Of a DNA stretch of 64,000 nt, positions 5,760-63,494 are shown one piece after another. Both the position numbers and the translations under genes were made by a program. The DNA comes from Massalongia carnosa (lineage: Eukaryota): contig OZ287082.1 in NCBI GenBank assembly GCA_965645245.1, forward strand, positions 434,001 through 498,000, given 5' to 3'. The number at the start of each line of letters is the position of its first letter. Within the stretch, counting starts at the first letter, position 1. The notes beneath the pieces were generated by a model. The model was not told the origin of the DNA, ran no database searches, and saw nothing but the letters and a program-made list of their open reading frames with translations.

Positions 5760-6652
5760 ACCAAAGACCACCTATCGAAACACAAGTACCGCAACTTTTG
5801 ATGCTCTAAAACTTTCACAGTCAATTGAACATCTCTTTCTCAGTCATTTGAGCTCCTCCAGAGCAAAAACGGACTCAGATTGAGTGTAGGAGAGCTCTAG
5901 CAAAGCTCCAGCAGAGATTTTCTGCTGGTCGCACGCGACCGACGTGATAAAGCGCGCTCTAGAAGTTGGAAAAAACAACAAATACCAACAACCTCACCAA
6001 AAATCGCTCTTTTTTCTTGTTTTCTTCTGTTCTGTTGTCGCATGACCTTCAATTATCACTATAAAAATTATCTACAAAAATTATCTACTCTCGCGGGACT
6101 GTACAACAACTGTCGCGACGTCAGAGTCTTCTAAAGTTCATTCCTCATTTAAGGTTACGGGAACTTCCGCAAGCACAAATTTTCATAGCATATTTCACGT
6201 ATAATTTTTGCACATTCCATTTTCGGCTTTATAGATCTTCGTTGAACGGCCGGTCAACAGATCACTGAAAAGAAGGGGAAAAACGTCTGGAATAGGATTA
6301 TACTAAAGGTCCTGTTTCAGATTAATCAGAATAGGAAGTCTCCTATTGTCTTACATTGCATTAAAATTTATCTTTATTGAAAAAAGCAAAAAAAAAACTT
6401 TCATTATTTTCACCTATTGTAGTGTCTGGTAAAGGGTTAAATAAGACTTACTGCCTTAGCGAGGAACGGTCTATTTTAACCCGATTAGGATTTATTTGAC
6501 GCGTTATAGTCAAATAAATAGGGATAGGAAAGAAAGAGTCATTTGACCAGTAAACAAACAGGTGTAAATTCTATTCTGACTAGTACGTCCGGGGAAAGTC
6601 AGAATAAATTATTTGGTGGCGATAAAAGGGATATTGCAAAGGCAAAAACACT

Positions 6653-8311
6653 ATGCTCAATCGAAGATTTAACCCGATAGGTCATAGACCAAATCGATTG
6701 ATACCAACAACTCCTCCCCCAGGCCCCCCTCTACAACATCTATGGGTCCCCCCGAGTACTCCCCCGTGCCCCCCCCGAACCGACTCCCCCACGCCATCTT
6801 CGGTAGCGATAATTGGGAGCAACCCCCTAACCGTAGAATCCACGGAGGCCATGGACCAAACGCGAGAATTTTCGTCCGCACCGTCCACACCCACCCCGAA
6901 AACGAAACCTTTTGTCGCGCCATCTGGTGAATTCAGTACCAATCTGCCCATGCCATCATTGAATTCTGATATTCGACTGAGTCCACCAATTAAACGCAAC
7001 AAAAGACGAACATTTGACGAACATTCGATTGAGAGTCAAGAAGTCATCAATCGATCAAAATCGATTCAACTATTGAATACGGCAAAAAATGCATTATTAG
7101 AGTCATTCGTAATAGATCAAAACCCCGAAACGGCTATGGTCATCGATCACGTAAATTCTCTACTGGCAAAGAAATCGATCAAGCCAAAAGCAACGTTAGA
7201 AATGATTGATTGGAAATTGAATAGGGTGCTAGAACAAACTAGCCAAATTCCAGAAACAAAGAGACAATCGGTGCATCCTATACAGACAAAATCGAAGGGA
7301 AATTCAAATGGAAATTCGAATTTGACTCAAAACGTCAACCCAGAAATTCGGAGCGAAACCGCCGGAGTCCCAGGGCCGCAGGTCAACGATACAGCTAGAA
7401 CATGGAGCCAAATGCTCGGAAAAGCGACTGTCAATTCCGAAAATTGGACTACCGTTCCTCGATCCAAAAAAACAAACAAGAACAACAACAATAATTCGAA
7501 TGCGAACAAATTCGATAATACTGACGATTTCAAGGCGATCAAATCTCGACGATTGATAATCACACCGAAAGCTCAAATCGGCGATATCGATTCACTGTTG
7601 CTTCGAAACCAAATCAATTCGCTTTTTAAAGACGCGAAATTGACTATCGTTGTTAACACGGTCGAAAAGTCCAAAACGGGTCAAAACATCGTTCTGACTA
7701 CTAGTCCTGATAACACTGCTGAAGATTTATTGAACAATAAATCAATATGGGAGCATTTATTCGACCCACGAACAGTTCGAAAGGACGAATCGTGGTTCAA
7801 AGTCGTCGCACACGGTGTAAATATTGCAACATTTGATGAAAACATGCAATATTTGCAAGACGAAATTCAAAAGTTCAATTCGAACATGCAATTATGCGAT
7901 GTTCCCAGATGGCTAGCACGTGATCGTCATAACAAGATCAAATCATCCGTTGTTTTGACATTCAATGATCAGAATATGGCCTTGAACGCGTTAAAAGGAG
8001 TCAATATCGCGGGCCGACATTGTGACACGGAAATATTTACCTCCGTTCGTCCAAACACACAATGCATTAATTGTCAAAAATTTGGACACAAGAATTATCA
8101 ATGCAAAAGTCAAGCGAAATGCAGCATATGTGCGCAAAACCATGAAACACGCAATCATGAATGCACAACATGCAAGTCAAAAATTGCTTGTGCACACGCC
8201 GTCGTCAAATGCGCGAATTGCAACAAGAATCATCAATCCAATGATGAAAATTGTGAAATGGTTATATCGTTAAATGTTCGAAAATCGACTGACGAATTAG
8301 CCGCTTTGTAA
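6653..8311 (+). CDS. LINE ORF1 (gag-like nucleic-acid-binding protein with C-terminal Cys/His knuckles)
   Basis: 552 aa open frame; CINCQKFGHKNYQC, CSICAQNHETRNHEC, CANCNKNHQSNDENC. Confidence 0.92.
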   Translation: MLNRRFNPIGHRPNRLIPTTPPPGPPLQHLWVPPSTPPCPPRTDSPTPSSVAIIGSNPLTVESTEAMDQTREFSSAPSTPTPKTKPFVAPSGEFSTNLPMPSLNSDIRLSPPIKRNKRRTFDEHSIESQEVINRSKSIQLLNTAKNALLESFVIDQNPETAMVIDHVNSLLAKKSIKPKATLEMIDWKLNRVLEQTSQIPETKRQSVHPIQTKSKGNSNGNSNLTQNVNPEIRSETAGVPGPQVNDTARTWSQMLGKATVNSENWTTVPRSKKTNKNNNNNSNANKFDNTDDFKAIKSRRLIITPKAQIGDIDSLLLRNQINSLFKDAKLTIVVNTVEKSKTGQNIVLTTSPDNTAEDLLNNKSIWEHLFDPRTVRKDESWFKVVAHGVNIATFDENMQYLQDEIQKFNSNMQLCDVPRWLARDRHNKIKSSVVLTFNDQNMALNALKGVNIAGRHCDTEIFTSVRPNTQCINCQKFGHKNYQCKSQAKCSICAQNHETRNHECTTCKSKIACAHAVVKCANCNKNHQSNDENCEMVISLNVRKSTDELAAL

Positions 8312-11300
8312 TGGCAGGACAGCATTCGTTGACAAACATCGAAAATACACAAAATGTTAAATTTATTCAACATAATTGTGCAAAGTCAACGAATGCAATG
8401 ATATCGTGTTTGGAATATGCTTTATCAAATCAAATTGATATTGTTTTGTTTCAGGAACCATGGACACGAGATCAAAAAACAATATCACATCCGTTCATTT
8501 ACATGTATTATGCCAAAAATAGCGACTTATCGCTCGAGAGTAGCTATATTTGTCACAAATGGCAATTCCAAACTGCAATGCACGCCTAGAACGGATCTTA
8601 TTGACGATTCCGATATGCAAATTATTGAAATTACAATTGATGAAGTTCGAAAAGTGCAGATTTTCAATATTTATAACGAAAAAAGTCAAAGTGATCGAGA
8701 AACATACACGATCGATCGACTTTTAATCCAATTATAACCAAAATCAACTGATCAATTCGTCATCTGTGGAGATTTCAATGCACATTATAACTGGTGGAAT
8801 TCGAAAATTCAACAAGCAATTCGATCAGAAAATCTTGTCAAATGGTTGAAATTAAACAGGTGTAGCTTGATAAACACACCTGACTTATGTACATACTACG
8901 CCCATTCTGGAAGTTCTTCATCTGTTATTGATTTAACTTTTGCAAATTCTAAAATCGAAAATGCAATTACAAATTGGTCAATCGATGAAAACGCAGTCAC
9001 AGGTTCAGATCATGAAGTCATCCGATTTGAACTAATCGCATCTTTCAAAAACTTGACGTCACATGCAACCGCATTATCGAATAAATACAATTGCAATAAA
9101 GCTGATTGGAATAAATTCGCGAAGTATCTAGACGAAAATTCAACCATCTACGAATCACAAGTTCAAAGTTTATTGAATAATCATCAATTCGACGAATCAG
9201 CGATATATTTGCAAAACGTTATCAAAAACGCGGCTGAAATGTTTATTCCGAAAACGAAAATTTGTGCAAAATCGAAAAATTGGTGGTCGCATGATTTAAC
9301 TGAACTTCGAAAAACCATGTGCAGACATCGTCGAGAATGGAAGAATTATCCGTCCGATTTTAGTCATCGGACGTTTAAACATAGTCGAATCGAGTATTTT
9401 CATGCAATTCGAAAAGCAAAACAACAAACCTGGTTGACTTTTCTAGAAAATGCAGCGAATAAAGACGTGTTTACCGCGTATAAATATACTAAACCGCGCA
9501 TATTCGAAAAAATACCGCCGATTCTACATGAAAACAAGCTAAATGTTCAGTTTAATGACAAATGCGATGCATTTGTGTCAGCAATGTATACAAAAAACCC
9601 ATTTATTGACGATAATGAGGAAGATTTATCAAATCAAGACAGCGTAAATGATGATAATTGGCCAGATTTGACCGAAAACGAGTTGAAAAATGCGATTAGT
9701 TTATTTAATCCGAAGAAAGCATGTGGACCTGATGCAATCAATTTTACAATTGTTCAAAAATCGTTTCAATCGTTGAAAAACGTGTTTTTCATGATTTATT
9801 CGAAATTCATTCGAATCGGTTATCACCCGTTATGCTGGCGGACAGGACTCGGTGCAGTTCTGAAAAAACCTAATAAATCGGACTATTCGTTTCCAAAATC
9901 ATATCGAATTATCACATTATTAAATTGTCTTGGTAAAATTGCTGAGAAAATCGTTGCAAATCGACTAGCCTACTTCGGCGAAAATTCGAATTTACTCGAT
10001 ATCGAACAGATGGGCGGACGCAAAAATCATTCTGCAATTGACGCAGTAATGAACGTTGTTCATGATATTGAAATTGCAAATAGAAATAAAAACGTCTTAT
10101 CATGTTTATTACTCGATGTCAAAGGCGCATTTGACTTTGTCTCGATTAATCAACTGCTAAATGTTATGAAAAAGCTGAAATTATCTCGCATAATAATTCA
10201 ATGGGTCAAGCATTTCATGACAAAGCGATCGATCAATTTGATATTTGATGAAAATTTAAGCAAAACATATTATGTCGAATCAGGAATTCCACAAGGCTCA
10301 CCAATCTCGCCTATTCTATTTCTGATTTACATTCGTCACTTGTTTCCGAAAATACGAATGAAATTCAATGCACATTCTCCCAGTTTTATTGACGATGTTG
10401 CAATATATGTCGAAAATAAAACTGCAAAACAGAATTGCAAAGAAATCGAAATCATAGTCAAAACGGCCTTTGATTGGGCCGCATCGAATAATGTCAAATT
10501 TGATGACGATAAATCCGAGCTGATTCACTTCGAAAAGACAAGAAATGTATCGAAAGACACATTGGAATTACCAAACGGGACAGTACTAGAACCAAAAAAT
10601 GTAGTCAAATGGTTGGGCGTCTGGTTAGACCGAAAACTAAATTTCAAAAAACACGTCGAAACGCGGATCTCTTCTGCGAATCGATCGTTTTTTGCAATTC
10701 AGAATTTGATGAAATCCGAATGGGGTCTGAAACCGACCGCATGCAGACAGCTCTATATGTCATGCATTATTCCTATTTCGGACTACGGCTCAGAAATTTG
10801 GTATAATGGTCAAAAGAAATATGAAAAACTATTTCAGAACCTACAAAATCAAATGATTCGAAAGATTTTAGGAACTTTCAAAACCACACCTATTCAGGCG
10901 ATGGAAATTGAATCACATGTTTTACCAGTTAAACTTCGATTATTAATGAAAAATCAAAAATACGCAATTCGATTATTGAAGATTGCCGAAAATAACCCTA
11001 TTTGTCAAAGAATTCCAAACACATATTCGATAAAATTCGAAAATATCGGTTTTGACACAAGTTTATGGAACAACAAATATGCCGAATGGAACGAAGACGA
11101 AAAACAAACAAATAAACGACATCCTAGTCAGCTTATTCGCGTTCTTCATTCCGTTTCCGATATAGTTCACAAAACGGATGAATTTGAACAATCAAATCAT
11201 TTTATTAAACCTTGGAAATCGCCTTGCAAAATCAAATTTCAAATCGAAAATACAAAGGAATCTGCTAAATCAAGTTATTATTCGACCTTATCCAAAATTA

Positions 11301-12325
11301 AATCAATGAACTCCGATAAATCCCGAGTTTTACTTTATACAGATGGATCGAAAATCGAATTTGCAACGTCTGCAGTCACATTTGCGCCAATTATGAGGAA
11401 TTGGAGTAGTATTATCAATAATTTTGATCGATTTATCGAAAAAGATTGTCTGATCAAGTATCATACGATTTCGAAAAGCTGGAAATTAAGCAAACAGTCA
11501 AGCATTAAAAATGCTGAACTGCATGCAATTTTACAAGCAATGAAATGGGTCTATAAATTGTCTAATACTAATATTTTATCGAACTTGGAAAAAACGATTT
11601 GGATTTTTTCTGATAGTATAAACGCGATAAACGAAATTCAGAACTTGAAAAATCATATTTTCGCAAGACAAATTCGAAAGCTCGCAAAACGCTTATTTGA
11701 AAGCAATTATCAGGTGATTTTGCAATGGGTTCCGAGTCATTCGAATATTACCGAAAACGAAATTGCAGACAAAATAGCAAAGACGGGCCATAATCAAATC
11801 CTAGTCGAGTCCTCGGCTATAACATTTGATTATGTAAAAGATCAAATAAATCAAAATATGCTAACCACATGGACGAATCAATGGCAACAATGCAAATCAA
11901 AAGGCAAATACTACGAGAAATTCGAAATGAAACCTGGCATATCGAGATTTTATTATTTATCAAACAACTGTTCCAAATTGATATTTGCTACTATTATGCA
12001 ATTAAAATTCGGACACGGCTATTTTCGATCATATTTACATCGATTGAAAGATTATAATTCGTCAAAATGCTCAAATCGATGCAATCAACGACAAACGCCA
12101 GAACACTTGTTATTGAATTGCATTCACTATTTCGATGAAATTCAAAACATGAAACAAACCATCGATACTACGATCAACTTGAATATGTTGTTTAATACAA
12201 AAATCGGAAATGACATTTTGATTAAATTCATTGTCAATAACAAAATCGCGACTAGAAAATGGATACTAGGTCAGCTTGATGACGAGATTTTCGAAACTGG
12301 AGGTTGGGGAGAGATCGAACAGTAA
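8311..12325 (+). pseudogene. LINE ORF2 (APE endonuclease - RT - RNase H - C-terminal Cys/His), disrupted in the APE domain
   Basis: QHN..QEP..GDFNAH..SDH; GIPQGSPISP and SFIDD; YTDGS..AEL..FSDS..WVPSH..NEIAD. One-nucleotide insertion near 8494 relative to copy D and TAA at 8735. Confidence 0.93.
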
Positions 12326-12566
12326 AATCAGAAACGATTTATGCTGAAACATTCACGAACTTACAAAGAAAAATTTTAAAATCGATATTCTTCGATTACT
12401 ATAGGTTGTTACTAACACGGAGTAAAAATGGGGAAAAATTGACAATACATAGATGGGTTATAAAGGGTTGATTTATTTGTAATATAGAAACATATCCTAA
12501 AATAGTTTAGTGTCATAACCTTAGGTTGAATACACTTAATGAATAAATAAAAAAAATAAAAAAAAA

Positions 12567-37003: not shown

Positions 37004-37723
37004 CAACGAGTTCACTTGAAGGTAGGCTCATATTTGAGAAAATCCCATGACGACGCAAGATTGCCCCCTTCAAATGACGACATTGGTCATCAATATCGTA
37101 AGACTGTGGGCGCATAAGATCTGACAGCACATAGGTAGCCGAAAGATCAACAAGTCGACCCATCAAGAAGTTTTCTTCCTTTATATCAGTATCATAAATC
37201 TGAAGACGATCCAATATGTTCCGATGTTCAATCATCTGCTCTGGAGTGACGAGGTTGAAGTTGAAATGAGGACCCTCAACGATCTTCTTCACTATGAGCT
37301 TCAGCGGATCCTTCTCCGAAATTTGAAATCTTCCGATGCACAGTTCTGGAGGGACCTCAAACCAGCCGTAGGCTTCGATATCTGGTGAGTTGACTTTTGC
37401 CTCGGAGTCGCCTTCAATAACTGAATACGCCTTCAACTCGCGATCGAAGGACTAAGTTCATAGCCGGCTCTCGAAAGAATGTAGCCGTAATTAAGGTAAT
37501 AGTAGGCCTTAAACTAAGAAACTAATAAGCATAAATACGCATAGAGATGGGAAGCGCACATAAGAATACCCACCACCTTCAATGCCACAGCGTTGCCATT
37601 AGCAAAAGAGACTATGCTACCTTCATATACATCACCAGCATCCCCACTACCAAGCCTCCTTGTAATGGAGATATCGCTTGGCTTTATTGTCGATAGATAT
37701 GGTAGTGCTGTGTAATAAGCCAT
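37004..37723 (-). pseudogene. small kinase-like gene (FTA2-like fungal family), hit by gypsy 2 at its ATG and by TRIM-2 near its 3' end
   Basis: LGSGDAGDVY..VALKV (Gly loop and Lys), intron(s), ELKAYS..AYGW..DIKEENF..RLVDLS. Confidence 0.6.
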
Positions 37724-38075
37724 GTGTAGCACGTCGACCTAGATAGAAATCTAATAGGGACTATGTACGAAAACTAGTAAGATGAAGAAAGAAAGCTATG
37801 TACAGATCGCCGGTTAATAAACACTCATACCCGTGCTAAGCCTAATGCAGGTTTTCATCACCGTCGTTGAACTGCTCATACCACGCGTGTTAATAATGTC
37901 GCTACAAGCAGTGCTAAATCCGTTTTCGGTTAGATAAGGTGAATAGCACTACGTCATTTGCTGCCTGAGGTTAGAGCGTTGTAATCCGTGACATTACCCC
38001 CTTCTTTAGATCGCGAATCACCTGATCGCGATTAGCGCCGTTCTTGTCAGGTGACGTAATTCCCGTTGACTGTTG

Positions 38076-41000
38076 TCAACCTGGTGCGAAATTCCACCGT
38101 GGTTTGCTAGGATAGCGCAAATAGAAATCCTCCACTACCTCCTTAGCATTTTCAAATCCATTAGCATCGTACCAATCTGGATCTTCCGGATGGTCCTTCC
38201 ATTTGACTCGAAATTGCACCTTTCCTCTTCGCCTTCTGGCATCCAGCACGTCATCAACTTCCCATTCTTCCTTACCTTCTATCACTACCGGAGGGGCTGG
38301 ATCATTGATCTGCCCTGGTAATGGATCCTCCGCGGCCTTTCTCAATAGACTAGTGTGGAATACATTATGAATTTTCATCGATTCGGGCAGAGCAAGCCTG
38401 AACGATGACCCAATCATCTTGTCTATTCGGTACGGTCCGATCATCTTGTGGTCCAGTTTCTTCGAAGTTCTCTCGGTATGGATATTTTTCGTTGACAACC
38501 AAACCATATCGCCCTCTTCATAGCTGACCTCCTTTCGATTCTGATTAGCCACCCTTTGCTGTCTATCCTGGGACTTCTTCATGTTTTCGTGAACGAACTC
38601 CCAGGTTTTCTTCATCCTTTCGGTGATATTTTGGGCACGTTCCTTAGCTAACCTTTCTCGAGTAGTATCTGCAGATAGATCAACCACATCGAAACTCATC
38701 CTTGGTTCATATCCCTTTGTGGCCATAAACGGTGTCAACTTGGTGGAGGCCGATTCGCAAGCATTGGCCGCAAACTCCGCCATCGGTAGTAGCATCACCC
38801 AATCATCCTGGAAATAGTTTACATAGCTGCGCAGGTGTCGCTCCATTTCCTGATTGGCTATCTCGCTTTGGCCATCGGTTTCCGGATGAAATGCTGTGGA
38901 GAGTTTGGCCGTTATACCCAGTATTTTGCACATCGTTTTCCAGACCGTCGATACAAACTGCGGTCCCCGATCGGATACTATGCTACTGGGCAACCCATGG
39001 TATTTCCAGACGTTATTGATCAACAACTTCGCCATTGCTTCGCTCGTGGTTCCATGTTCCTCGGTAGTGCATGGTATGTAATGCCTTTCCTTCGATAATC
39101 GATCTACCACCATAAGAATCGCATTGAATCCTTCGCCCGACAGTGGAAGGCCCGTTACGAAGTCTAGTGATATATCCTGCCATGGTTGTTCGGGTATAGA
39201 TAATGGCCTCAACAAACCATTGTACTTATCTCTAGGTGCTTTCGCGCGTCTGCACACATGACAATTCCGTACATACCGTTTGATATCCGCTTCCATTTTG
39301 GGCCAGTAGTAATTCCGAGTTATCATCTCCAAGGTTCGAGCGACGCCAGGGTGCCCTACAGCTGGCTGATCATGAATCTGACGGATTACCTCCAGTTTCA
39401 ATTCATCCTGTGGGGGCACCCATAGCTTATTCCGCTTGTATAGCAAGCCGTCCTTGACCTGACAGTCTTTTAACGCCGGCGAGTTTTCCGAGTCTGAATC
39501 AAGTCCAGTGCTTGCAGCACTCAATGCCTGACGCATATTATTGCAATCCTCATCTGTGAAATTGCCCTGCCTTACCTTTTCTTCCAAGGTCTGAACAGTC
39601 TCTTCCGTTTCTGTCTCGATGGGCGCCAGTTCGATGCGATTGCGGGGCAACAGAGTCTGTAGCTGATGCTGTTGGCGTTCGTCCTTCTCATCCTTGGGTT
39701 TATCATTGGGTCTCCGGGTTAGAGCATCAGCCTTTTCATTATTTTTACCCGTTTGATAAACGATGACGAAGTTGAACTCAGATAGGAATTCCGCCCATCT
39801 AGCCTGTCGACGGGTCAACTTTTTGGTAGTCATGAAAAATTCCAAACTCTTGTGATCGGTGAAGACCTTTATAGGTATTTCTGTGCCTTCCAATTCTGGT
39901 CTCCATTGTTCAAAGCATCGAATGATAGCTAACAGTTCTTTATCGTAGATCTCGTAATTGCACTCGGCCGGGCTCATGTTCTTTGAGAAGAAGGCTACCG
40001 GATGCAACTCGTCATCCTCACCCATTTGGGACAGAATACCCCCACTGACATAATCCGAAGAGTCTGTTTCTAACCAACACTGTAGTTTTGGATCGAAATG
40101 AGCAAGAACAGGTGCTTCCACCACTCGATCCTTCAGGTCCTGGAACCCCTGAGCGCAAGCTTCGGTCCATTCGAAGATTCTATCCTTCTTGGCCAGTGCA
40201 TTTAATGGTCCAGCTAGTTTGGAAAAGCCTCGAATGAAGCGCCGATAGAAGTTGCAAAAACCTATAAATGATCGCACCTCGCGAAGACAGGTAGGAACGC
40301 TCCATTCCATGATAGCCTTTATCTTTTCCGGGTCCATCTTGATACCATCCGTGCTGATGATCAGGCCCAAATACTTCGTTTCAGTGACGTGGAATTCACA
40401 CTTATCCACATCGGCTTGAATGCCTGCCTCTCTTAACTTGGTGAGCACTCCCCTTACATGCTGACGGTGTTGTTTCAGATTTCTGCTATAAATCAGAATG
40501 TCATCCAGATAGGCCGTACAAAATTTGTCTAAGTATTCAAAGAGGACATCATTAATGAAGTGCTGCCACGAAGCCGGTCCTCCAGTCAATCCAAATGGTA
40601 ACACCTTGTATTTATAGGCCCCAAACCGTGAGTTGAAGGTGGTGAGGTCCTCCGACGCAGCCTCCATCCGAAGTTTATGAAAGGCCTGACGAATATCTAT
40701 TTTGGAGAATATTTTAGCCTCTTTCAACTGAGCCAACGTTTCCTCGATCAAAGGTATTGGATAACGATCCTTTTTAGTGATCTGATTCAGCCTTCGGTAA
40801 TCTACGCAGAACCGTAATCCACCACTAGGCTTTTTCGCTAACAGAATGGGCGATGAGCATGCGGCATGGCTTGCTTCGATAAAGCCTTTCCTGAGATTGT
40901 CTTCTAGATATTTCTTGACAAACTCCAGTTCTTTCTGGGACATGCTCCGAAGAGGACTATATCCATGATCTTTACCCCCTTCGAGCAGTATCTTGTGCTC

Positions 41001-41888
41001 ATGCAATCTATAGGGTGACAACGTATCAGAATCTATCTTCGAAAACACGTCCAAAAACTCGTGATACTCCGGCGGCACTACCAACTTTGGATCAGTAGGA
41101 GGCCTCGACTCCTTATTCAACTGATCGTCTATGTCCTTCATCGAGATCGCATAGACTTTTACCGCCTTACAGTGAGTAAGATATCGGTAGGAGTCTGCAC
41201 CAATGATGGCTACATCAACCGGTTTAGATGGTTTCGGATCGATCCTCGGAACTTCCTTTGGGATTGGAGTAGCCTCCGGTTTATCTTCCATGATAGATCG
41301 ACGCAATATCTTTCGGGGTGAGATCACTATAGTCAACTCCTCATCCGTCGATTTTTTATTGATCGTTTCCAGTTTCCTAGGAGGTTCTATCAACTTAGGA
41401 GCACCCGGGTGGGTGCAGTGTCCAGGCCAGAACATGATTTTATCGCAACTCATGTCCAGAATGACTCCATGCTTTCGCATCCATGGTTTTCCTAGTATCA
41501 TTTTATGCTGCCCCAGCTGTGTAATCAACAGAGGCGAGATTGTTTCCCTATGATTCTGCACGGTGAGGGTAGGATAGATGGCGTGGGTGATAGGTTTACC
41601 CAAGCGGCCATCGAAACCTCTCACCGGCTTCGGTTTCGTCAATCGCTGCGGTGATAGTTGCAGTCGTTCACAAATCGTGCGCACCATCTTTTCATCAATA
41701 AAAGCATGTCCTGTAGCACCAGTGTCTAACAGAGTAACAAGCTCTATTTCTTCCTGATTGCCTAGTTTACATGAAGTAACAAGAGGTTCATCGGTAAACA
41801 AATCACCAGGCAAACAAGAGGATGAGATCAAAAGAGGTTTATCATAGTCATCTACACTCGCGTCTTCGAGGGAGATCAGTCTTTTTTT
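38076..41888 (-). CDS. gypsy 2 pol (PR-RT-RH-IN-chromodomain), open; reached by -1 frameshift
   Basis: LLDTGATG, YLDD, integrase HHCC/DDE, EEWEVDDVLDARRRRGKVQFRVKW. Confidence 0.93.
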   Translation of the reverse strand, partial: KKRLISLEDASVDDYDKPLLISSSCLPGDLFTDEPLVTSCKLGNQEEIELVTLLDTGATGHAFIDEKMVRTICERLQLSPQRLTKPKPVRGFDGRLGKPITHAIYPTLTVQNHRETISPLLITQLGQHKMILGKPWMRKHGVILDMSCDKIMFWPGHCTHPGAPKLIEPPRKLETINKKSTDEELTIVISPRKILRRSIMEDKPEATPIPKEVPRIDPKPSKPVDVAIIGADSYRYLTHCKAVKVYAISMKDIDDQLNKESRPPTDPKLVVPPEYHEFLDVFSKIDSDTLSPYRLHEHKILLEGGKDHGYSPLRSMSQKELEFVKKYLEDNLRKGFIEASHAACSSPILLAKKPSGGLRFCVDYRRLNQITKKDRYPIPLIEETLAQLKEAKIFSKIDIRQAFHKLRMEAASEDLTTFNSRFGAYKYKVLPFGLTGGPASWQHFINDVLFEYLDKFCTAYLDDILIYSRNLKQHRQHVRGVLTKLREAGIQADVDKCEFHVTETKYLGLIISTDGIKMDPEKIKAIMEWSVPTCLREVRSFIGFCNFYRRFIRGFSKLAGPLNALAKKDRIFEWTEACAQGFQDLKDRVVEAPVLAHFDPKLQCWLETDSSDYVSGGILSQMGEDDELHPVAFFSKNMSPAECNYEIYDKELLAIIRCFEQWRPELEGTEIPIKVFTDHKSLEFFMTTKKLTRRQARWAEFLSEFNFVIVYQTGKNNEKADALTRRPNDKPKDEKDERQQHQLQTLLPRNRIELAPIETETEETVQTLEEKVRQGNFTDEDCNNMRQALSAASTGLDSDSENSPALKDCQVKDGLLYKRNKLWVPPQDELKLEVIRQIHDQPAVGHPGVARTLEMITRNYYWPKMEADIKRYVRNCHVCRRAKAPRDKYNGLLRPLSIPEQPWQDISLDFVTGLPLSGEGFNAILMVVDRLSKERHYIPCTTEEHGTTSEAMAKLLINNVWKYHGLPSSIVSDRGPQFVSTVWKTMCKILGITAKLSTAFHPETDGQSEIANQEMERHLRSYVNYFQDDWVMLLPMAEFAANACESASTKLTPFMATKGYEPRMSFDVVDLSADTTRERLAKERAQNITERMKKTWEFVHENMKKSQDRQQRVANQNRKEVSYEEGDMVWLSTKNIHTERTSKKLDHKMIGPYRIDKMIGSSFRLALPESMKIHNVFHTSLLRKAAEDPLPGQINDPAPPVVIEGKEEWEVDDVLDARRRRGKVQFRVKWKDHPEDPDWYDANGFENAKEVVEDFYLRYPSKPRWNFAPG

Positions 41889-43153
41889 GACTTCGGCTCA
41901 ACATCTAACTCGTTAATGATGGCTGTCATCTTTGATTTCTTTTTAGGACAGTCCCTTGAGGGATGTCCGACCTCCTTGCAATTGAAGCACTTCCCTTCCC
42001 TGCTCAACCGCTCCCGTTCCGACTCCGATAGATAGGATCCTACGGTCCAGGACGACAAGGTCGATGGCGATGAAGGGGCACGAGACTCGGTGCGAGCATT
42101 TGGTGCCACATAGGTTTTGCTTTCGGTGGTAGCGGTAGGGGTGTTCGCCGGGACCACTACACTGGTTGGTTTTTTTCCTTCGGCAAAGCGTTCCATCCTA
42201 GCCTTGCTACGATCCACATCCTTCAGAGCCTGATACATGCGCTAGCAACGCTGAGCGAACGCATATAGGTCGGTTGGTTCGTGATCGCCGGTGGCTAGCT
42301 GACGGCGCATATCTAGGTTGAGCTTGTGTTTCAACTCACCGATTAGGGTAGCCTCATTGTGATCCAACTCGGCGGCCAAACGCTGAAACTCCGCCCAAAA
42401 GGTATTGAAGTCCTTTTGACCCTGTCGCAGAGAACGGAATAGGTTCATGGCAGTCTGTTTGCGGTTCGGATCTCCATAAATTCGTTCCAAATGATCAAAC
42501 ATTTCCTCTGCAGTAAGAAAAGGTTTGATAGCATTTTTTCGGAGACGAGGTTCCAAATGGCCCATAGCCTCTCCGCCGACTCGGTTTTCCACATAGGCCT
42601 TTTTAAATAGCTCGGTAGGCATATGGTCTTCATTAGCTGCTAATTTGCTGCGCATTTTAGTCAACCAATGATCGATACTCGGTTCTTTTCCATCGATAAA
42701 AACCGGTGGGTCGGGAAGTTTCATCGACTTCCATAAAGATTCTTCGCTCTGATTGGATCGTGCAGGGGAGCCCTGCAGGTCATGTGGAGGTGGAAATGGT
42801 GGTGGTGCATTACTCCCTGCAGGTGCAGTAGCTGCGGCCATCCGCCGAGCCTCTTCAAGTTCTTCCTTCTGGTATTCAATCATACCTGCTTGGCGATTGA
42901 TTTTGATCTGACTATCTTCTAAACTAAGCACAAGCTTATTATGTTCCACCACGACCTCCTCATAGTCTGACTTCATGTCTCGTATTATAGCCAAAACTGT
43001 TTCTGCATCCTCCTGCACCCAGTGCCGAAGATGTTGTACTGTTTCTATCCTCCATGGTGAGTCAGCCCCGGGGCCTTCTTCACCGATGTCTATGGGCGGG
43101 ATGAGAGACTCCCGTTGATAGTAGGTGGGTGTTTCGTTCGCGGATCTAGCCAT
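41876..43153 (-). pseudogene. gypsy 2 gag with in-frame TAG at 42242-42244
   Basis: QRC*RMYQ; knuckle CFNCKEVGHPSRDC. Confidence 0.85.
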
Positions 43154-43857
43154 TTCTATCGCTCTTCCTTACTCGGCTCTGTTGAGTATAGTCCAGTTTC
43201 GTTCGTGATCGGATTGTTATCGGATCTACTATCATATGCTGAGGATAGTCCTAGGATTTCGGATCTGGTTCGTGTTTCGGGTGCTGACTGACTGACGGAC
43301 TGACATACAGTTGGGTGGATTGTTTTATATCCTCCACAAGGGATAGCAAGATTTAGAGTGATCTTACTAGTTGTGTAGCACGTCGACCTAGATAGAAATC
43401 TAATAGGGACTATGTACGAAAACTAGTAAGATGAAGAAAGAAAGCTATGTACAGATCGCCGGTTAATAAACACTCATACCCGTGCTAAGCCTAATGCAGG
43501 TTTTCATCACTGTCGTTGAACTGCTCATACCACGCGTGTTAATAATGTCGCTACAAGCAGTGCTAAATCCGTTTTCGGTTAGATAAGGTGAATAGCACTA
43601 CGTCATTTGCTGCCTGAGGTTAGAGCGTTGTAATCCGTGACACCATGAGTATGATGGTTAATGAACGAGAACAGTGAGTAGATTTTCAAGTGATTATAAC
43701 GTCGGATCGGATAAATCTCGGTCTTAAAATAACCCGGGCCGAGGCCTGGTTTCTAAATTTAGCATATACACGCATGTGACGCGCTCGAAAGCATATTGAA
43801 ATGAGCGTTGTAAAATTGAGAAGTAACTAAGAAAGTATATCTAGACTTCGCCTATTT

Positions 43858-53338: not shown

Positions 53339-53791
53339 CTTAAGCTCTATACTCGAATCATCAGTCTAGTATTGGGGGCAAGTTATGTAGACTCTCTAAA
53401 TACATCGGAAAGTCCTCTGAGGCTGATGAATAGGGGGGCGAATTTCTGACCAGGTCTCTGTAATCTTTGAAGGCGTGAGGTAGTTTCGGGGAAAATCTGC
53501 GAATTTGCTACTCCTGAGAGGTTCTGGTGGGAAGTAGTCCCCGTTATAACATAGTTGAGACACGGGGCAATCTCTATTTGGAAGTGGCAGCATATACCTC
53601 GGTGAGATATAAATCTTGAAGCATGACTTATTGCGGCACTTTCTAAATGCGGCAACGTGATATGTGTTTATGCATGACGAACTGCCACAGGGAACGGCCC
53701 GAGCCAATGTTAGTTTGGCAGCTTATCATCGGCTACAGCACCAAGTCATTTGACACGCATATATATACGCAATGTGCTATCGAAAACAACT

Positions 53792-54371
53792 TTTTTATTT
53801 TATTAATTCATTAAGCGTATGCATCCTAAGGATATGACGCTGTGACTGCTATTTATGTACATAAACAACAATCAGGAAGTGGAAACCTGGCCCCTAGGGT
53901 AAAACCACTCCCTTGTTTCATGTTGAACGCAACAAGATCGTTCTTCTACCACGCGGTGCATACACCCAGATCTTCAAGCGCTAGGAATCCTATAGACTCG
54001 ATGAACTAGACAGTGTATTTCCACACGTTCGACGAACGTTCTCTCTCTTAAACGTTTTGATTCAATGAAGGAAAGACTGGCCGTGATCGAGGGCAGATCG
54101 TGGTGTCGTATAAATGAAGGTGTATAAGTGTGGCCATTCTGAATGAATGGGCTTTTTCGATGTGGTGAAAGGCTTCCGCCTGAGGGGTGTGGCCATTCCG
54201 AATGAATGAGCTTTGTATGTGTGCCTTCGAGGTAACGAATGATCAGTAGAGACGTTGATCGTTCAAATGGCCACCAAGGTGGACTTCCGCGTTGGCGATG
54301 ATCAGATATTGGCCACCTCCGAGGAGGTGTTGATAGCCTGCACCACGTAGAGGTTTCTGACCCAGCAGGCC
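53792..54371 (-). mobile_element. non-coding SINE-like retroposon with 5' HDV-like ribozyme and LINE-type 3' tail
   Basis: 13-bp TSD atcgaaaacaact (53779-53791, 54372-54384); A-rich tail; 3' stem-loop homologous to the LINE tail. Confidence 0.85.
54300..54371 (-). ncRNA. HDV-like self-cleaving ribozyme (predicted)
   Basis: GGCCTGC(P1) TG GGTCAGAA(P2) ACC(P3) TCTACGT(L3) GGT(P3') GCAGGCT(P1') AT CAA CACCTC-CTCG-GAGGTG(P4) GCCAA(J4/2) TATCTGATC(P2'). Confidence 0.8.
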
Positions 54372-55239
54372 ATCGAAAACAACTATTCACGTTCTGCGGT
54401 CACCAATGAAATGAATATCGGTGATTCATATATAGACTTCCTGGGATATCTAACGCTGCCATTCCGATAGGCAACAAGGGTTGATGACTCACGTTACTGC
54501 ATTTAGAAATGGCCATTACAAGTCTAGCTCATTGGCTATAATCCTTTTCGTTCACCGAGTGGAGGTGCGTACGATATTCAGTTGCTTTGATTGGATGAGA
54601 TGGAAATCGGCGATGCTCTGCATTTGGTTACGGTTTGCGGCCCGGGCCGTTCTATAACAGTGATTTGCTGAAATCCGTCGAACCTGAGCGACCTTGGCTG
54701 GAATCATCAAATCATGATGCGAGCCTTTAATATACAGAGTTAAATGTACTTTTCTGCATATAGCCCAGACGGCTACTGAACAATGACGTGCCCTGAGTCA
54801 TCGGCCCTGTGGGAGCTTCTGCTTGTTGGAGGCCTGCAAATGTATTTATTATGATGCACAGTACAGCCAATAAAGAAACGAAGGGGCGAAGGCAGAGACA
54901 CCGGGAACGGCCCTGGCCAACACTAAAGAGATGGCAGACTTGGTTGTGTAGGTGGGATTCGATTGAAAGTCGACGGCTCAAACGATTCCCACCATCCTCA
55001 GGCACCACACGGTAACAGCCGTCAGCACTTCGGCCGCGACAGATCTCTAACTTGCGCGCAATCACCATCCATCGATGCAAGACAACTCGCCCATGTACGC
55101 TACGCTCATCTTTTCGGATGCTTCTTGTCATTGAGCGCCTTTTTTCCATTCCGTGGATATATTGCCTTACCCGCATTCGTTATCTCTGGAAGTCGCGTCT
55201 CGCCTACATTTTCAGACGTGGCCCTCTCTCCCAGCTCAC

Positions 55240-55500
55240 GCTCCGGTTGACTGCGACAAGTGCAATCGGTCGTTTGGCAGTCGACAACAACACCTGAATT
55301 CTCCAGCTCATGCTCCAATGTGCAACGAATGCGACCGGTCTTTTGGCAGTCAGCAGGCTCTTAACCAGCACCTAAGCTCCCCAGCTCACGATCCGGTATA
55401 TGAGTGCGACGAGTGTGATCGATCGTTCGGTAGCCAGGAGTCCCTCGATCAGCATCTTAGCTCCCCAGCTCACGCTCCGCTACACAACTATGACTATCCT
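55240..55500 (+). pseudogene. C2H2 zinc-finger repeat gene fragment
   Basis: Three Cx2C-x-RSFGS...QHLxSPAH units; no coherent start or end. Confidence 0.7.
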
Positions 55501-55742
55501 GTAGTATTGGCTCTTAGTGCCATAAATTTCCAAAGATCCCGTACAAGAGGGCCCCCCTCCTCAACCAAGGCCATAAACATAGCATCTTCCGTCATTACAT
55601 CGGAATTGGCAACAACATATTGACAAACCAACTCTCTCAGTTTATCAATTCCATTATCCAAATCAGGGGTCCTCTCATCTGTGTATGTGTACCGCGCAAG
55701 ATCGACGATGTATTGAACTTTCAGTGCGTCGAGACGAAGCAT
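55494..55742 (-). pseudogene. fragment resembling the C-terminal helical part of fungal BTB/POZ proteins
   Basis: LARYTY..TPD...DKLRELVCQY...FMALVEEGG.LVRDL. Confidence 0.5.
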
Positions 55743-56002: not shown

Positions 56003-58941
56003 TCATACCAACTGTATATTTCCAATACTTGCTTCGCCGTCTCTAACATCTGCTACGGAAACCTTTCCCCGCAGGACTTTCTGTGCCCACACGAGACGAG
56101 TCCATTTACTTGGTTTCTCTTGCTCCTTCCCAAAGTTAAAGGACTTAAGCCACCGATGAGTCTGCCGCCTTCTCTCTAGTCGTGCCACAAATGTGATTAT
56201 CTGACACAGACACAAGGTCACAAAAATGGCAATAATAACGACAAAAGCTAATGGCTCGCCGCCCGATGTACCTACGTATATGACGATCGCTAGGATCCCG
56301 TATAATAACAAGACAAAAGCAATAACAAGCCATTGGGAGAGCACCCGCATCTCTTTGCTAGGTAGAGGTGAAAATGGCCGCCTGCGTAATAGATGGTTGG
56401 GGTCAAGAGTAGCTAGGGTCGCCAAGACGTTAGAACCTCTGTGCGTTGGATTTAGGAGGTCATCACCTACCAGCCTGCATAACAACTCTCCGCTGAGATG
56501 GCAAAAGTGTGAATTCAACTATAGGGATATCGTCAAGTGTTTGCGAGGATGCTTGTTTCCATTGAGTAGGATTCCAAATTTTGAAGGGCCGGTCGTAGTT
56601 CACAAGGATATCGTGCATAGAGTCCTCAAGCCCTTCTATGATTCTGAACTGAGCGCCAACTCCTGAGATACCACTTATAGACGTCGATCCCCCTGATTTG
56701 TCGATGAAGAGATATAGACGTTGTGCCGCCTGGCGAGCACCGGCGGACTCGTTCTGACTGTATTCGTCGAGTTGGATAACCAGGTCGAGGTCACGGGTGT
56801 AATCGACCAAGCGAAATTCTTTCGGCTGATTGGTCGAGTCTATCTGTAGGGCAATGTGATCAAATGACCCTTGCGCCATGAGCTCCAGGTCAAGAGTGTA
56901 GTAACGATCATTGGAAAGACGCAAGCGAGGGCCATCGACAAGCTTCGACCCAGAGATCGTCTGAGGGACCCAACTATCTTCCGCATAATCAGGATAAACA
57001 TCACGGACTAAGCCTGGCGTGTATAGTATGGACGCAGGCAATTCCTCGCAGCTTCGGATCAGGAGGTGGAGACGGTTTTGAGTGGCGGTCTGGGCTACCC
57101 GTTGGCTGTCAAAGTCTAAGATGCTAGCTAATATAATCATAGGATCACCAGTCTTCGTGGCAGAACGTTCTATAAGATTGTTCCAAGCGAAGATTAATTG
57201 AGAGACTCTTGAAGCGTCTATCCTATAATGTTTCTCGAGTTCCAGGCCTTGACGACGGTCATCTCCCAGGATTTCTTTCAGGGTAAGTGGAACAGACTGT
57301 TTGTATTTCGCTAGCAGTTTTGATCCAACAGTTAGGTCAGGTTTGTGTCCACTTCGCCAGTATCTCGATGGTTCAGGCAGTCCGGTCATCTTCCACAGGT
57401 CGGACATGTTCAGTGAGCAATCGCAGAATTTTAACCGTAACACTCGAGCTATGCTTCCTTCTTCGAGGGTCCATGCTCGTTGCATCCATCGTGAAAGGTA
57501 CACTCGCGCAGCGATTTCGTCAAAGTCAGATTTTCTTGCTATATGTTTTTCAAGCCCGGAATCAATGACTATAACTTCGAGAGCACCTCCATACACTGGC
57601 GTAATATGTCTGAGAGATTTATTTTTCATCTTCTCTGCCCAATCAAGAGTTATCGGGCCATGTGAGAAGGTATTGGGAATGCACAAGGTGTCCAGCCAGA
57701 AGTAGAGGCGGTTATCTGTGCGACGGATCAAGTTGGCGAAAAATGCAACAAACTTATCGATGATAAATACTTCACCTTCGATGCTTTTCCGTCGCTGCAG
57801 CATGATCGACGTCAAAGCCTTGAGCTGGCAAAGCCTGATTGAGTTTGAGCTTTTGTTACCCATACCGTCGGACCAAATATGGGATATTGCAAAAAAGGGC
57901 TGTTTCCTATCCCAAGTATGAAGCTTCAGATCGAGGTTCGAAGCCAGTATGATTGCACAGAGCTCAGGGGTTGAGATCGGGCATTCGGGACATGTCAGAT
58001 GCTGTGTACTGAGATCGTGCAGACGAGGGTACTCGATTCCAAGCGGTAGGTCGTAGGCAATGCATTTCTGTTCATTTCGACATCCGCTGTGGTCTGAAGA
58101 GATGTTGGAGATGCCATGAGAATCAAGACTGTCTCTTGGAGCAAGATTCGAAAGTAATGCCAGGAAGTTGACGGTGCAGTAATCAAATGTAGAGCAAACC
58201 GAGAGTGCGGATGTTGGACACCAGCCCCGAGCCTCGAAAAGCCTGCAGAGCAGTGCCACTGGTGGGGATAAGGGCTCAAGACGCTTTCCTCCGGGAAGAG
58301 GTACCAAACCTTGCTTTCGGTTTCTACGTGCCACTTCCTGAAAGCATATACCACAAATTGCTTTTAGCAACAGCTTCCAACCAAGGATAGGCTCGTGTAT
58401 CACGGTCGCTATAATTGTAGACGTCCTTCACTATTGACAAGAAGATCTTGATAGAGAGTAGGACTTCCTCGCATCGCGGACTTGCTATGCCGGTGAAGGC
58501 AATGTCGAAACGGTCGCTGGCCTCGATAGCTTTCCCAAGGGTCGCCAAAATATCCTTCTTTCGGGTCTTTGTAACATTGTTATGCGCTTCATCGAGAATA
58601 CCAGGAAGATCGGGTTCTGGGCAGCAAATCTTTCCAAAATTGATGACATCCCCGGCATCAGACACGATAGCCGATTTTAGGTCGCGAATAGGAATTCCCG
58701 AAACAAAAGATAGCAGGCTGAACAGGAGCCAGCATTGTGCAATAGCCAATGCGTCATACTCTTGCATTCGAGTTACGTGAAAGATTTGTCTGTCCCTCTC
58801 GAAAGACTGCTGGTCTTGATCGAAGTCAACTCGATTCTCAAACCACTCAAACGATACATCGTTGTTGTGGTAGAGAGGTGACTTCAGAAACGGTATTGGA
58901 TTTGCTTCAAACCCTTGCCTAGGCTTATATAGTGACTCCAT
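56003..58941 (-). CDS. HET-domain protein with C-terminal transmembrane segments; frame break near 58330-58400
   Basis: AISHIWSDGMGN, FWLDTLCIP, VYGGA.EVIVID, SRWMQRAWTLEEG; probable intron at ~56470 into a hydrophobic last exon. Confidence 0.8.
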
Positions 58942-60684: not shown

Positions 60685-63494
60685 GGGTCGGGATACGGCA
60701 ACACCCTATTAGCTACCTTAACACCCTACTTTGCTACCTTCACACCCTACTTGGATAAATTCACACCCCCGAAAAAGTAACCGCAAAAGGAAAAGTTTCC
60801 GCCCCCCCTTTCCCGAGTAGGGTAAGCGGTGCGAAATTCTGTCGCCCATGTTTTCGAACATCAGGAATCAGAGTCGATTGGCACCATGTTGGCCATTCGC
60901 ACCTTGATTTCAAGCTACTAAACTTAAAGCAGACTAGCTACCTCATTTCCTGCCTGATCTATCGCTGCTTCATTCAACCCTCATTTTCGCCGTCTCCATC
61001 TCTGACATCTCCCTCACCTCCCTGATTCTCTCGCGCATTCCGAGCACTTCTTCGAATCCCTCGCGCACCTCGAGTCCCTCGAGTCTCCTGCGCATCCTGC
61101 GTCCCCCGCGTCCCCCGCGTCCCCCGCGTCCCCCGCGTCCCCCGCGTCCCCCGCGCATCTCCACCACCTCGATCAGCTCGATCAGCTCGAGCTCTTCTGC
61201 CTCGCGCCCTTGTCGGGGCTGGATCCGCCCGACGAATGACCCGTTCCACATCCGCTGGCACCTCTTCATCTTCTGCCGTCTCCATAATAACTCGCTCGAA
61301 TTGAGAAGTTTGTCGACCCGTAGAGGCATTGAAAGCTTGAGTTCTTCTGTTTTCCGCTCCCGAAGGTCGTCCACGAGGTCGAATAATGTCTGGTTCTTCC
61401 ACTATCAGCAGATTGAAATCATTGGCGGGAGCGTTTCTTTCAAATCTCCAATGTGGATGAACGTCTTCCAGCAATAAACTTCCTTCGCCATACAATCTTT
61501 CCTGAATTCTATGACTGCAAGGCAGTCCGGTGCTGGTTGTAAAAGAATTCGTACATGCTGGCAGAGCCGTCGGTCTCCCGGTCAGTAAATCGTACTGAGA
61601 ATTAATTCTTCTGATTGCCTTAGTACTGATGAATGGAGATATTTGCTGAAAAATTGATTTCCGAAGATCTAGCGGATGTCGCGTTTTGTCCTCATTCAAT
61701 TTGATCCAATAGTTATGATACTCGTTCACCAATAAAAGACTGATTCCGTCCACCACCGTTTTCAGATCTCCGGTCGACGTTCCTAATTGACGTTTGATCA
61801 CTGCATGCCCTCCCTCACCTCGAGAAGTAGTGGTGGTGTCAAAATGCAGTACTCGATTGGTAAAGCATCTTACGAAATGCTGAACATGAGTAATGTAGGT
61901 GGTAGCCAGATATTCCACTACCTCATACTCCTTGTATTTGATCGAAAACTGACCCCAGAGCTCCCATAGTATGACTTCCGATGAGGCGTAAGTTATCGCT
62001 TTCCATTCCGCAAAGAAGGTGTCCCATTCTTCCTTGCTGAATTGTCTTTTGCAATTGGCGACGACATTCTTATTGATATGCCAAATGCAAAGCAGATGAT
62101 TGGTACGAGGAAATTGCGCACGAAGAGCAAGCATCAGACTTCTTTCCATGTCGGTGACAATGACGGTCGGATCTGGAAGCTCCATTTGCAAATATAGAGC
62201 TTTGACTTGCCTCAAAACCCAGGTGTAGTCAAATTTTGTCTCACTGGCCATGAAGCAAAAAGCCACATAGAAATTGGTATGCAATGCGGTTTGACCGCTG
62301 ATGATCAGAAGAGGCATTTTGTAGCGATTGGTTTTATAAGTGCAATCCATGATCAGAACCTCATAGTTGGACTTTAAAAAAGTTCGGGAACTTCCTTTTA
62401 CAAAGAATAAATGAGTTATCTGATTGCGATCCTCCTCATTCTTTTGCATTTGATACAACCAATCGTCGCTCTGATCAAGCTCTCAAATCAATGCCTGTAT
62501 GGGAGTCAACGGTCCCAAAGCCTCGCGACGAAGTTGAGCCTTGAGATTGTAGATGTCTCGAGGTTTGATCATGGGATTGACGACTCGAGGATTGGCCGGA
62601 TCATCCCAATTGATTCCGGTGGTAAGATCAGGTATGCGCAGACTCGAAATCACTTTCGATGGAGCAGTCTGAACAGTTAGCTGACGCGATATCTCATCTT
62701 TTACCTCGGCGGTGATAGCCATCTTTCGATGCACTGGATGAGCCCCTGCCAAACTCGAGGCATGATTATGTTCCGATTTGACCACTTCCAAAAACCAGAT
62801 ATCAGACTCTTTTTCCCGAATCGCAATCATTGAAAAGGGACAAGCAATGGCTCTGCTGGCAGTATGACGACGACTTTGTCCGCGAGGTTCTCTTACTCTG
62901 CCTCCTCGATCGCAAATCAACCAAGCTTTGCGCGTATTTCCATCCTTATTCTTCTTCGTACGAACGAGAACAATTGCATAACCGCGCGGGCCAGCATGCT
63001 CATTGACTCGTTGAATCAAGTCTTCCAAAGACTCAAAGGATTGTCCTTCTTCCGGAGCAGTAAGAGGTGCTGAAGCTGACGAAGGGGGAGAAGCTGGCGG
63101 AGGGGGAGAAGCTGGCGGAGGGGGAGAAGCTGGCGGAGGGGGAGAAGCTGGCGGAGGGAAGGCAGATGCGACTCTTTCGAGGATGATGAGATTGGGAGCG
63201 GAAGAATTGGATTCGGTATCAAAACCATTGAACGTGTCATCGGAAGATGACATTCTGCAGGAGTAAGAAGGTTGCGGCGAAATTCCATGATGCGACGAAA
63301 TTTTGCGAAAGATGAAGCGAAATTTCAGGTGCGGCAAAATTTCGCGCCGCTTACCCTAATTGGGAAATGGAAGGGGGCGGAAACTTTCCCTTTTGCGGTT
63401 ACTTTTTCGGGGGTGTGAATGTATCCAAGTAGGGTGTGAAGGTAGCAAAGTAGGGTGTTAAGGTAGCTAATAGGGTGTGCCCGTATCCGCACCC
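60685..63494 (-). mobile_element. MULE (Mutator-like) DNA transposon with ~160-bp TIRs
   Basis: gggtcgggatacggcaacaccctattagctacc... is inverted at ...ggtagctaatagggtgtgcccgtatccgcaccc. Confidence 0.9.
60974..63253 (-). pseudogene. MULE transposase (FAR1-like DNA-binding domain, DDE core, SWIM-like finger, AT-hook) with one in-frame TGA at 62483-62485
   Basis: MDCTYKTNRYKMPL, VTDME, LCIWH, RGEGGH, GLPCSH, RPRGRP. Confidence 0.88.

Follow-up and report, generated by a model that had tools for sequence, protein, structure and literature searches.

A candidate ribozyme-headed, LINE-tailed non-coding retroposon family in the apparently fungal genome of Massalongia carnosa

What kind of sequence begins, directly after a target-site duplication, with a fold like that of the hepatitis delta virus (HDV) ribozyme and ends with the tail of a long interspersed nuclear element (LINE), with next to nothing to translate in between? 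The question is raised by a 580-nt insert on the minus strand of a 64,000-nt stretch of contig OZ287082.1 of Massalongia carnosa (the window, whose numbering is used throughout), where the insert runs from 54371 down to 53792. In our judgement it is probably a non-autonomous retroposon with a ribozyme at its head that depends on a LINE for its copying, and that could be called SIDE-like (SIDE, short internally deleted element) or a ribozyme-type short interspersed nuclear element (SINE). The in silico basis for this consists of the borders of the insert, the duplication around it, a fold that starts on its nt 1, a LINE-type tail with covarying pairs, and copies in four public sequencing runs that form a family with one constant 5’ end. 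An earlier note on this DNA, made from its letters alone, had described the same architecture and taken it for a candidate new class of SINE.

The borders of the insert are defined by two exact copies of a 13-nt direct repeat, AGTTGTTTTCGAT on the minus strand, the 5’ one at 54384-54372 and the 3’ one at 53791-53779, which are evident in the sequence and were recovered independently by a repeat search as a 13-nt exact core. Read on the minus strand, the junctions are ...GTGAAT AGTTGTTTTCGAT, directly followed by the start of the insert, GGCCTGCTGGG, and, at the other side, the end of the insert, TAATGAATTAATAAAATAAAAA(A), followed by (A)GTTGTTTTCGAT AGCAC..., where the first A of the duplication could be assigned instead to the A-rich tail at the insert’s other end. 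Terminal inverted repeats are absent from the insert, and its coding capacity amounts to a single ATG-initiated open reading frame (ORF) of at least 30 amino acids lying wholly inside, which encodes 44. With a target-site duplication, an A-rich 3’ end and essentially nothing coding, the insert has the attributes of a non-autonomous retroposon, and the insertion is confirmed as the earlier note delimited it. It is not a SINE in the strict sense, which requires a tRNA, 5S or 7SL head with an RNA polymerase III (pol III) promoter: as that note had stated, there is no such head, as ARAGORN found no tRNA in the element and an Rfam scan of the element at E up to 10 gave no match to a tRNA, 5S or 7SL head. 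From 5’ to 3’ on the minus strand, the element is made of the predicted ribozyme (nt 1-72, 54300..54371), a non-coding body (nt 73-530, 53842..54299), a 3’ stem-loop (53814..53841) and the A-rich tail TAATGAATTAATAAAATAAAAA (53792..53813). The body is unlike the rest of the window, including the untranslated regions (UTRs) of the LINEs; in a BLAST comparison with transitions collapsed (R/Y), its best score against the rest of the window was 75.7 bits, within the range of 66-104 bits obtained with shuffled sequence. Within the body, a repeat search found an internal duplication (54128..54223, minus strand) of two 37-nt units that are 84% alike and spaced by 59 nt, each of them with a CCATTC..GAATGG hairpin next to TGGCCA. 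No second copy of the element was found by BLAST in the window.

The head of the insert is where two Rfam models for HDV ribozymes align end to end: RF02682, the F. prausnitzii HDV ribozyme (26 bits, gathering score 44, model positions 1-74 of 74, window 54370-54300), and RF00094, the HDV ribozyme (25.2 bits, gathering score 50, model positions 1-89 of 89, window 54373-54298). Both put G1 at 54371, the first inserted base, and in the RF00094 alignment two unpaired leader positions are the last two bases of the duplication and the first base of the P1 helix is again 54371; a descriptor of our own, introduced below, places the start on the same base, in agreement with the HDV-like G1 that the earlier note had seen directly after the duplication. 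P1 has the expected length of about 7 bp, pairing nt 1-7 with nt 31-37 (54371-54365 with 54341-54335) and beginning with a G1-U37 wobble, and is followed by a J1/2 of U8 and G9. P2, which makes the pseudoknot and is left unscored by the covariance models, pairs nt 10-17 with nt 64-72 (54362-54355 with 54308-54300) in eight pairs with A65 bulged, seven of them contiguous (nt 10-16 with 66-72) and A17-U64 being the eighth. P3 joins ACC to GGU (nt 18-20 with 28-30; 54354-54352 with 54344-54342) around an L3 of UCUACGU (54351-54345), and this P3/L3 stretch, ACCUCUACGUGGU, is letter for letter the consensus of RF02682. J1/4 reads AUCAAC, and P4 (nt 43-48 with 53-58; 54329-54324 with 54319-54314) is a plain hairpin with a CUCG loop. 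The J4/2 strand, GGCCAA (54313-54309), aligns to GGCuAA in both Rfam models; within it the candidate catalytic base, C60 (54312), is aligned to the conserved C of both and presumably corresponds to C75 of HDV. Minimum-free-energy folds of nt 1-76 and of nt 1-120 retain the nested part of this structure. Taken together, the first 72 nt conform to the nested double-pseudoknot fold that characterises HDV-like ribozymes in all but P1.1, which is weighed below.

A fold of this kind must be judged by how often it would turn up by chance. Our descriptor asks for a P1 of 7 bp, a P3 of 3 bp, an L3 of 6-8 nt, a P4 of at least 4 bp, a P2 of at least 5 bp and C-N-R-A after P4, and leaves out P1.1 and every other sequence requirement; its strict form raises P4 to at least 5 bp and P2 to at least 7 bp. 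In its loose form it found three starts (54371, 23922 and 11353) among the 128,000 positions on both strands of the window, compared with a mean of 3.9 in 18 dinucleotide-preserving shuffles, and a loose HDV-like fold is therefore by itself not rare in a window of this size. The strict form found 54371 alone, with a shuffle mean of 0.28. What makes the fold significant is that the duplication, and the family evidence as well, fix the first base of the element independently: the chance that a fold starts on that very base and strand is about 3e-5 for the loose and about 2e-6 for the strict descriptor, figures that precede any counting of the sequence match to known HDV cores. Separately, a degenerate pattern of the ribozyme core was run against larger collections, where it gave two metagenomic loci, both GC-rich chance matches without BLAST similarity to the element, two matches in Streptomyces among prokaryote genomes, judged to be chance as well, and no match in the viral collection.

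The other end of the element links it to a LINE. Nucleotides 531-580 match six LINE 3’ ends of the window with 79-86% identity by BLAST, and a 23-mer taken from the tail occurs at four places in the window at up to three mismatches, where none is expected. The part in common is a stem-loop of 5 + 5 pairs followed by TAATGAAT(T/A)AATAAAA..., and the A-rich tail, too, is of the LINE type. Over the 28 nt of the stem-loop, element and LINE consensus differ at five positions, four of which make up two compensated pairs (C-G in the element versus U-A in the LINEs, and U-A versus A-U) and the fifth of which lies in a bulge. The U-A/A-U swap is made of transversions and thus cannot be explained by C-to-T decay. 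In the alignment of the stem-loop, 96.7% of the cells of its 10 pairs are paired and two of the 10 pairs are changed on both sides, a covariation that 15 of 500 shuffles also reached and that, with six distinct rows, is statistically weak. Compensated changes of this sort are as expected of a structure recognised by a reverse transcriptase, and the stem-loop is presumed to be the recognition site for that of the LINE. The element thus shares its 3’ end with an autonomous LINE present in its own genome, as the earlier note had seen. As a whole, the element is more than a 3’ UTR of the resident LINE, a possibility of the kind that the note itself had raised: only the last ~50-57 nt are shared, and collapsing transitions brought out no further similarity before about nt 522.

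The longest LINE copy in the window (5763..12556, plus strand), with an ORF1-like frame at 6626-8311 and an ORF2 frame with matches to APE, RT and RNase H domains at 8738-12325, has a tail homologous to that of the element and is a candidate relative of the partner that would mobilise it; the other LINE tails end at 2550, 15001 and 16064 on the plus strand and at 15465 and 18171 on the minus strand. Between 2100 and 24700 the LINE family forms a nest, with seven or more full-length or partial copies in both orientations that are inserted beside or into each other, and a subfamily about 70% identical occupies 3533-5758. The earlier note had called the LINE Tad1-like; its ORF2 shows the APE-RT-RNase H architecture, and a search of a protein atlas with it led to clusters generic for that architecture, without pointing to a clade. 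The 5’ ends of LINE copies were located at about 5763, 18654 and 21350, and that of the ~70% identical subfamily at about 3533; at these four ends, which represent two subfamilies, no ribozyme was found by the Rfam scan of the whole window or by two laxer close-up scans, and our descriptor had no match on the plus strand of the window, these 5’ ends included, which agrees with what the earlier note had reported. The 5’ end in common with the partner LINE by which a SIDE is recognised is accordingly missing as far as the LINE copies of the window go. These copies are decayed and AT-rich (GC 0.31-0.36 over 8-25 kb), and because the element, in contrast, differs by only about 2% from the majority sequence of its family, its actual mobiliser is probably a younger LINE subfamily that the window does not contain.

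That such a family exists, and that its 5’ end is fixed, could be seen in public sequencing runs. Sequence words of the 580 nt are present in 20 of the 23 runs listed, which come from 13 studies and carry nine organism labels plus “lichen metagenome”, with a best share of 0.64; the lichen-metagenome runs have word shares of 0.05-0.38, from which we draw no conclusion on habitat, and two RNA runs (X19 and X20) a share of 0.04, which has no bearing on expression. Contigs of four runs (X1, X3, X6 and X7; four organisms, four studies) were then aligned to 53400-54800 at a likeness of at least 80%. Contigs covering 53776-54386 alone, without flanks, were present in all four. X1 contributed 1,995 contigs or pieces, with a summed depth of 242,158-1,222,152 in the bins of the element and 774-810 in the flanks, that is, ~300-1,500 times more; X6 contributed 126 (191-871 in the element, 0-6 in the flanks), X3 26 (7-27, flanks 0) and X7 two (3-32, flanks 0). 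Summed depth is not a copy number, and these figures should be read as “very many copies” rather than as a count. In each of the four runs the depth rises in the bins that contain 53791 and 54371. Among the loose ends listed, those at 54371 number 13 in X1, three in X3, five in X6 and one in X7, and the agreement of the sequence beyond them (0.42-0.59) is that of unlike flanks; a further five in X1 and four in X6 lie at 54372, about the number to be expected from one flank base matching by chance, and nine in X1 at 53791. The family therefore is of high copy number, with a fixed 5’ end and with dispersed copies in unlike flanks, and two of the findings that, according to the earlier note, would have spoken against it, a single copy and ragged 5’ ends, were not encountered: contigs pile up in four runs, and the best-supported ends are at 54371/54372 in all of them. 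There are 157 further loose ends, so that truncated copies surely exist too.

Individual contigs add to this picture. In organism D, a 2,051-nt contig matches 53800-54371 apart from 17 differences and two gaps of one base each, and has unlike sequence on both sides. Two contigs of X1, which is probably the window’s own source, span both junctions of this locus with 0 differences. Compared with the X1 majority, the window copy differs at 12 of 580 places, 11 of them G/C-to-A/T transitions in the window copy; repeat-induced point mutation was considered, and with three of these differences in a CpA context we would rather speak of ordinary decay than of a clear signature of that process. The best-supported variation among family members spares the head, as none of the best 40 of 66 variant places falls within 54289-54371, the ribozyme, and all 40 are found in the other ~500 nt. 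Subfamilies with replaced or lost internal segments are present: variants that lack ~57 nt of the internal duplication (joint 54107->54165) occur in X1 and X6, which implies that the number of its units varies among copies. In X1, a single contig also connects 53835 directly or indirectly with 54332, what lies between being given as “not known”. Another X1 contig has a joint 54371->53802, in which a tail 10 nt short of its end is joined directly, head to tail, to the G1 of another copy.

Several points weigh against our interpretation, and a good part of them concern the head. Both HDV models miss their Rfam gathering scores, and the head, the sole ribozyme-class match in the Rfam scan of the 64-kb window, has an E-value of 1.1 there, so that the covariance models by themselves are insufficient for claiming a ribozyme. 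P1.1, for which two pairs are expected, consists of U23-A38 alone, with a C22/U39 mismatch, and this weakness is probably a feature of the family rather than a private mutation of the window copy, as no listed majority difference from that copy lies within 54289-54371. Natural ribozymes with a one-pair P1.1 do exist, CPEB3 being an example. The number of P1.1 pairs is reported to differ among the ribozymes of retroposons (PMC4035085), and the loss of P1.1 in TvSIDER1c is described as a severe defect (PMC3383444). At this locus, moreover, the GAU at positions -3 to -1 (54372-54374, the end of the duplication) is complementary to A38-U39-C40 of J1/4 (54332-54334), which would extend P1 by 3 bp and might hinder cleavage here. 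Pairing with upstream sequence can modulate ribozymes of the HDV-like type (PMC3383444), but a complementarity supplied by the flank is probably an accident of where this copy was inserted. As for the family, the evidence consists of depth and loose-end tables and not of the sequences of individual copies, the loose ends counted are those listed out of a larger number that includes the 157 mentioned above, the variant places are the best-supported ones with 26 of the 66 beyond them, and X1 and X6 are not strongly independent, the flanks in X6 being near-identical. Lastly, the LINEs of the window are old, which suggests that the active partner is probably not among them. A fixed 5’ end, furthermore, is equally expected from an internal promoter and does not tell promoter from ribozyme: transcription could start at G1, in which case the HDV-like fold would be inactive or coincidental and the element would carry an unknown type of SINE head. 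The weak P1.1 and the sub-threshold Rfam scores would suit this explanation, and promoter activity is plausible anyway, as the Pr77 sequence of L1Tc is promoter and ribozyme at once (PMC3383444), for which reason the two explanations are not even exclusive. As a replacement for the ribozyme, however, the promoter seems improbable to us, given that a full P1-P2-P3-P4-J4/2 fold would fall on that exact base by chance with a probability of 2e-6 to 3e-5, the match in L3 and P3 still uncounted, that ARAGORN and Rfam found no pol III head, and that the head is free of the best-supported variant places. We see hardly any chance that the insert is no retroposon at all but unique DNA that happens to lie between two direct repeats, a DNA transposon or an artefact of assembly; that the window holds only one copy would fit, but the exact 13-bp duplication, the A-rich 3’ end, the LINE-type tail, the lack of terminal inverted repeats, the pile-up of contigs on the exact interval in four runs and the two X1 contigs that cross both junctions without a difference all stand against it.

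Where the head came from is a different matter, on which a retroposon origin leaves more than one answer. The element might be an internally deleted derivative, and hence a true SIDE, of an autonomous LINE subfamily located outside the window, in which case head and tail would have one origin; we regard this as a serious possibility, if not one we would wager on. It would suit the youth of the element (12 of 580 places from the X1 majority) next to the decayed LINEs of the window, and a tail that differs from the window LINE tails at 5 of 28 stem-loop positions, as would fit a different and younger master LINE; the X1 joint 53835->54332 makes it possible that this head and tail also enclose other bodies, and published ribozyme-headed non-autonomous elements mostly arose as deletion derivatives of LINEs (PMC3414825). 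Speaking against it are the four LINE 5’ ends of two subfamilies, with neither an HDV-like nor any other ribozyme, and the body, which has no similarity to LINE UTRs, also after collapsing transitions. Separate origins of head and tail, the suspicion already voiced in the earlier note, strike us as conceivable but short of an even chance; a younger LINE subfamily outside the window could carry both. With the same reserve we raise the possibility of a fungal class of abundant SINE-like retroposons in which a self-cleaving HDV-like ribozyme takes the place of a pol III head and was captured independently of the copying LINE, which would make the element a chimera of an “orphan” ribozyme and a LINE tail.

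For the ribozyme-headed, LINE-dependent retroposon that we favour, we infer self-cleavage, a mode of transcription and a copying LINE, and the cycle could be pictured as follows. A transcript would run through the copy, begun either at a promoter nearby, with read-through into the element, or at an internal promoter that escaped detection, and the first ~72 nt would fold co-transcriptionally into the HDV-like ribozyme and cut directly 5’ of G1, releasing an RNA that begins at the first base of the element and still carries the ribozyme. By its stem-loop and A-rich tail, this RNA would look at its 3’ end like an APE-RT-RNase H LINE, allowing the ORF2 protein of that LINE to capture the RNA, nick an A/T-rich target, prime on the tail and copy the RNA up to its 5’ end. 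New copies would again start at G1 and be flanked by a duplication, which is 13 bp long in the present case.

The window is rich in other mobile elements as well. A Ty3/Gypsy-type long terminal repeat (LTR) retrotransposon at 25078-31453 (plus strand) has two 210-bp LTRs that are 100% identical and a pol region whose protease, RT, RNase H and integrase are spread across several frames, as in a young insertion with frame breaks; a second one at 37723-43642 (minus strand), with 271-bp LTRs 99.6% identical, a 1,273-aa open pol frame and a gag frame, may be intact. Between the two, 32884-37006 is occupied by a cluster of 170-570-bp repeats (33279-33849 and 36433-37003, for example, have 98.4% identity), and at 60685-63494 there is a Mutator-like DNA transposon with frames for a MULE transposase and a FAR1 DNA-binding domain (minus strand) between ~160-bp inverted repeats that are 91% alike. 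Two frames near the element look host-like, one with a C2H2 zinc finger at 55135-55623 (plus strand), ~760 bp from the 5’ end of the element and on the opposite strand, and one of 654 aa at 56463-58427 (minus strand) with a weak match to the HET domain (E 7e-4, below the Pfam cut-off).

If our interpretation is correct, ribozyme-defined 5’ ends of retroposons would extend from animals and trypanosomatids to an apparently fungal genome and to an APE-RT-RNase H LINE, and elements of the ribozyme type would be able to reach very high abundance. Repeat annotation that relies on pol III heads would miss or misclassify such a family. Our findings also suggest a possible role for the fungal ribozymes of the HDV class. 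Li and Breaker reported in 2017 HDV variants in ascomycetes, with 230 representatives in 26 species, two of which were shown to cleave (PMC5640933), and described their gene associations as “widely variable”; neither “transposon” nor “retrotransposon” appears in the main text of their paper, and to that extent no role in mobile elements is proposed there. If the fungal class considered above exists, many of those ribozymes could be the heads of such retroposons, which would give them a function. In the fungal variant the cut-site pair is C-G, P4 contains an E-loop and one additional base separates P2 from P3 (PMC5640933), whereas the head of the element has a G-U and a plain P4 and follows the general HDV consensus except for P1.1. 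Classical fungal SINEs such as the AfuSINEs are, like the element, short, non-coding and flanked by duplications, and are presumed to be copied by a LINE, but they have tRNA- or 5S-related pol III heads (PMC5063351), of which nothing is detectable in the element.

We found no fungal ribozyme-headed non-autonomous retroposon in the literature searched, judged by titles and the openings of abstracts, which left most subscription journals, Repbase and Dfam out of scope; to speak of a new class of SINE, as the earlier note did of a candidate one, is an overstatement, as the design of a non-coding element with a ribozyme head and a LINE tail is known from flies and trypanosomes (PMC3414825, PMC3383444), where it is represented by R2 and R2/R1 SIDEs and by NARTc, RIME and SIDER elements. 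In NARTc, RIME and SIDER1, whose partners are L1Tc and ingi, the first 77 nt are an HDV-like ribozyme that cuts 5’ of +1 (PMC3383444, PMC4035085), and like our element they are short, non-coding, dispersed and of high copy number, with the last ~30 nt and the A-tail in common with the LINE presumed to copy them. NARTc and L1Tc also form tandems whose units the ribozyme cuts apart (PMC3383444, PMC4035085), next to which the single head-to-tail joint in X1 may be set. The trypanosomatid LINE, on the other hand, has the same 77-nt head, which is also an RNA polymerase II promoter (PMC3383444), while the LINEs of the window are without the head of the element, and the host belongs to another kingdom. 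The twister-class ribozyme of Perere-3 in Schistosoma mansoni offers a parallel of a different kind, a 5’ ribozyme on a dispersed non-LTR element whose duplications abut the cut site, a position taken as evidence that the transposed RNA is delimited by cleavage (PMC8501958); Perere-3 is autonomous and its duplication contributes to P1, whereas the HDV-like fold needs nothing upstream. The R2 and R2/R1 SIDEs, finally, combine a 5’ HDV-like ribozyme with a LINE 3’ end and encode nothing, just as the element does, and the hybrids have an R2 ribozyme in front of the 3’ end of R1 and make duplications of the R1 type, 14 bp long (PMC3414825), which is precisely the design of separate origins suggested for the element. 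These SIDEs are confined to the ribosomal DNA, are co-transcribed with the 28S gene and are rare (PMC3414825), whereas the family described here is dispersed and very abundant.

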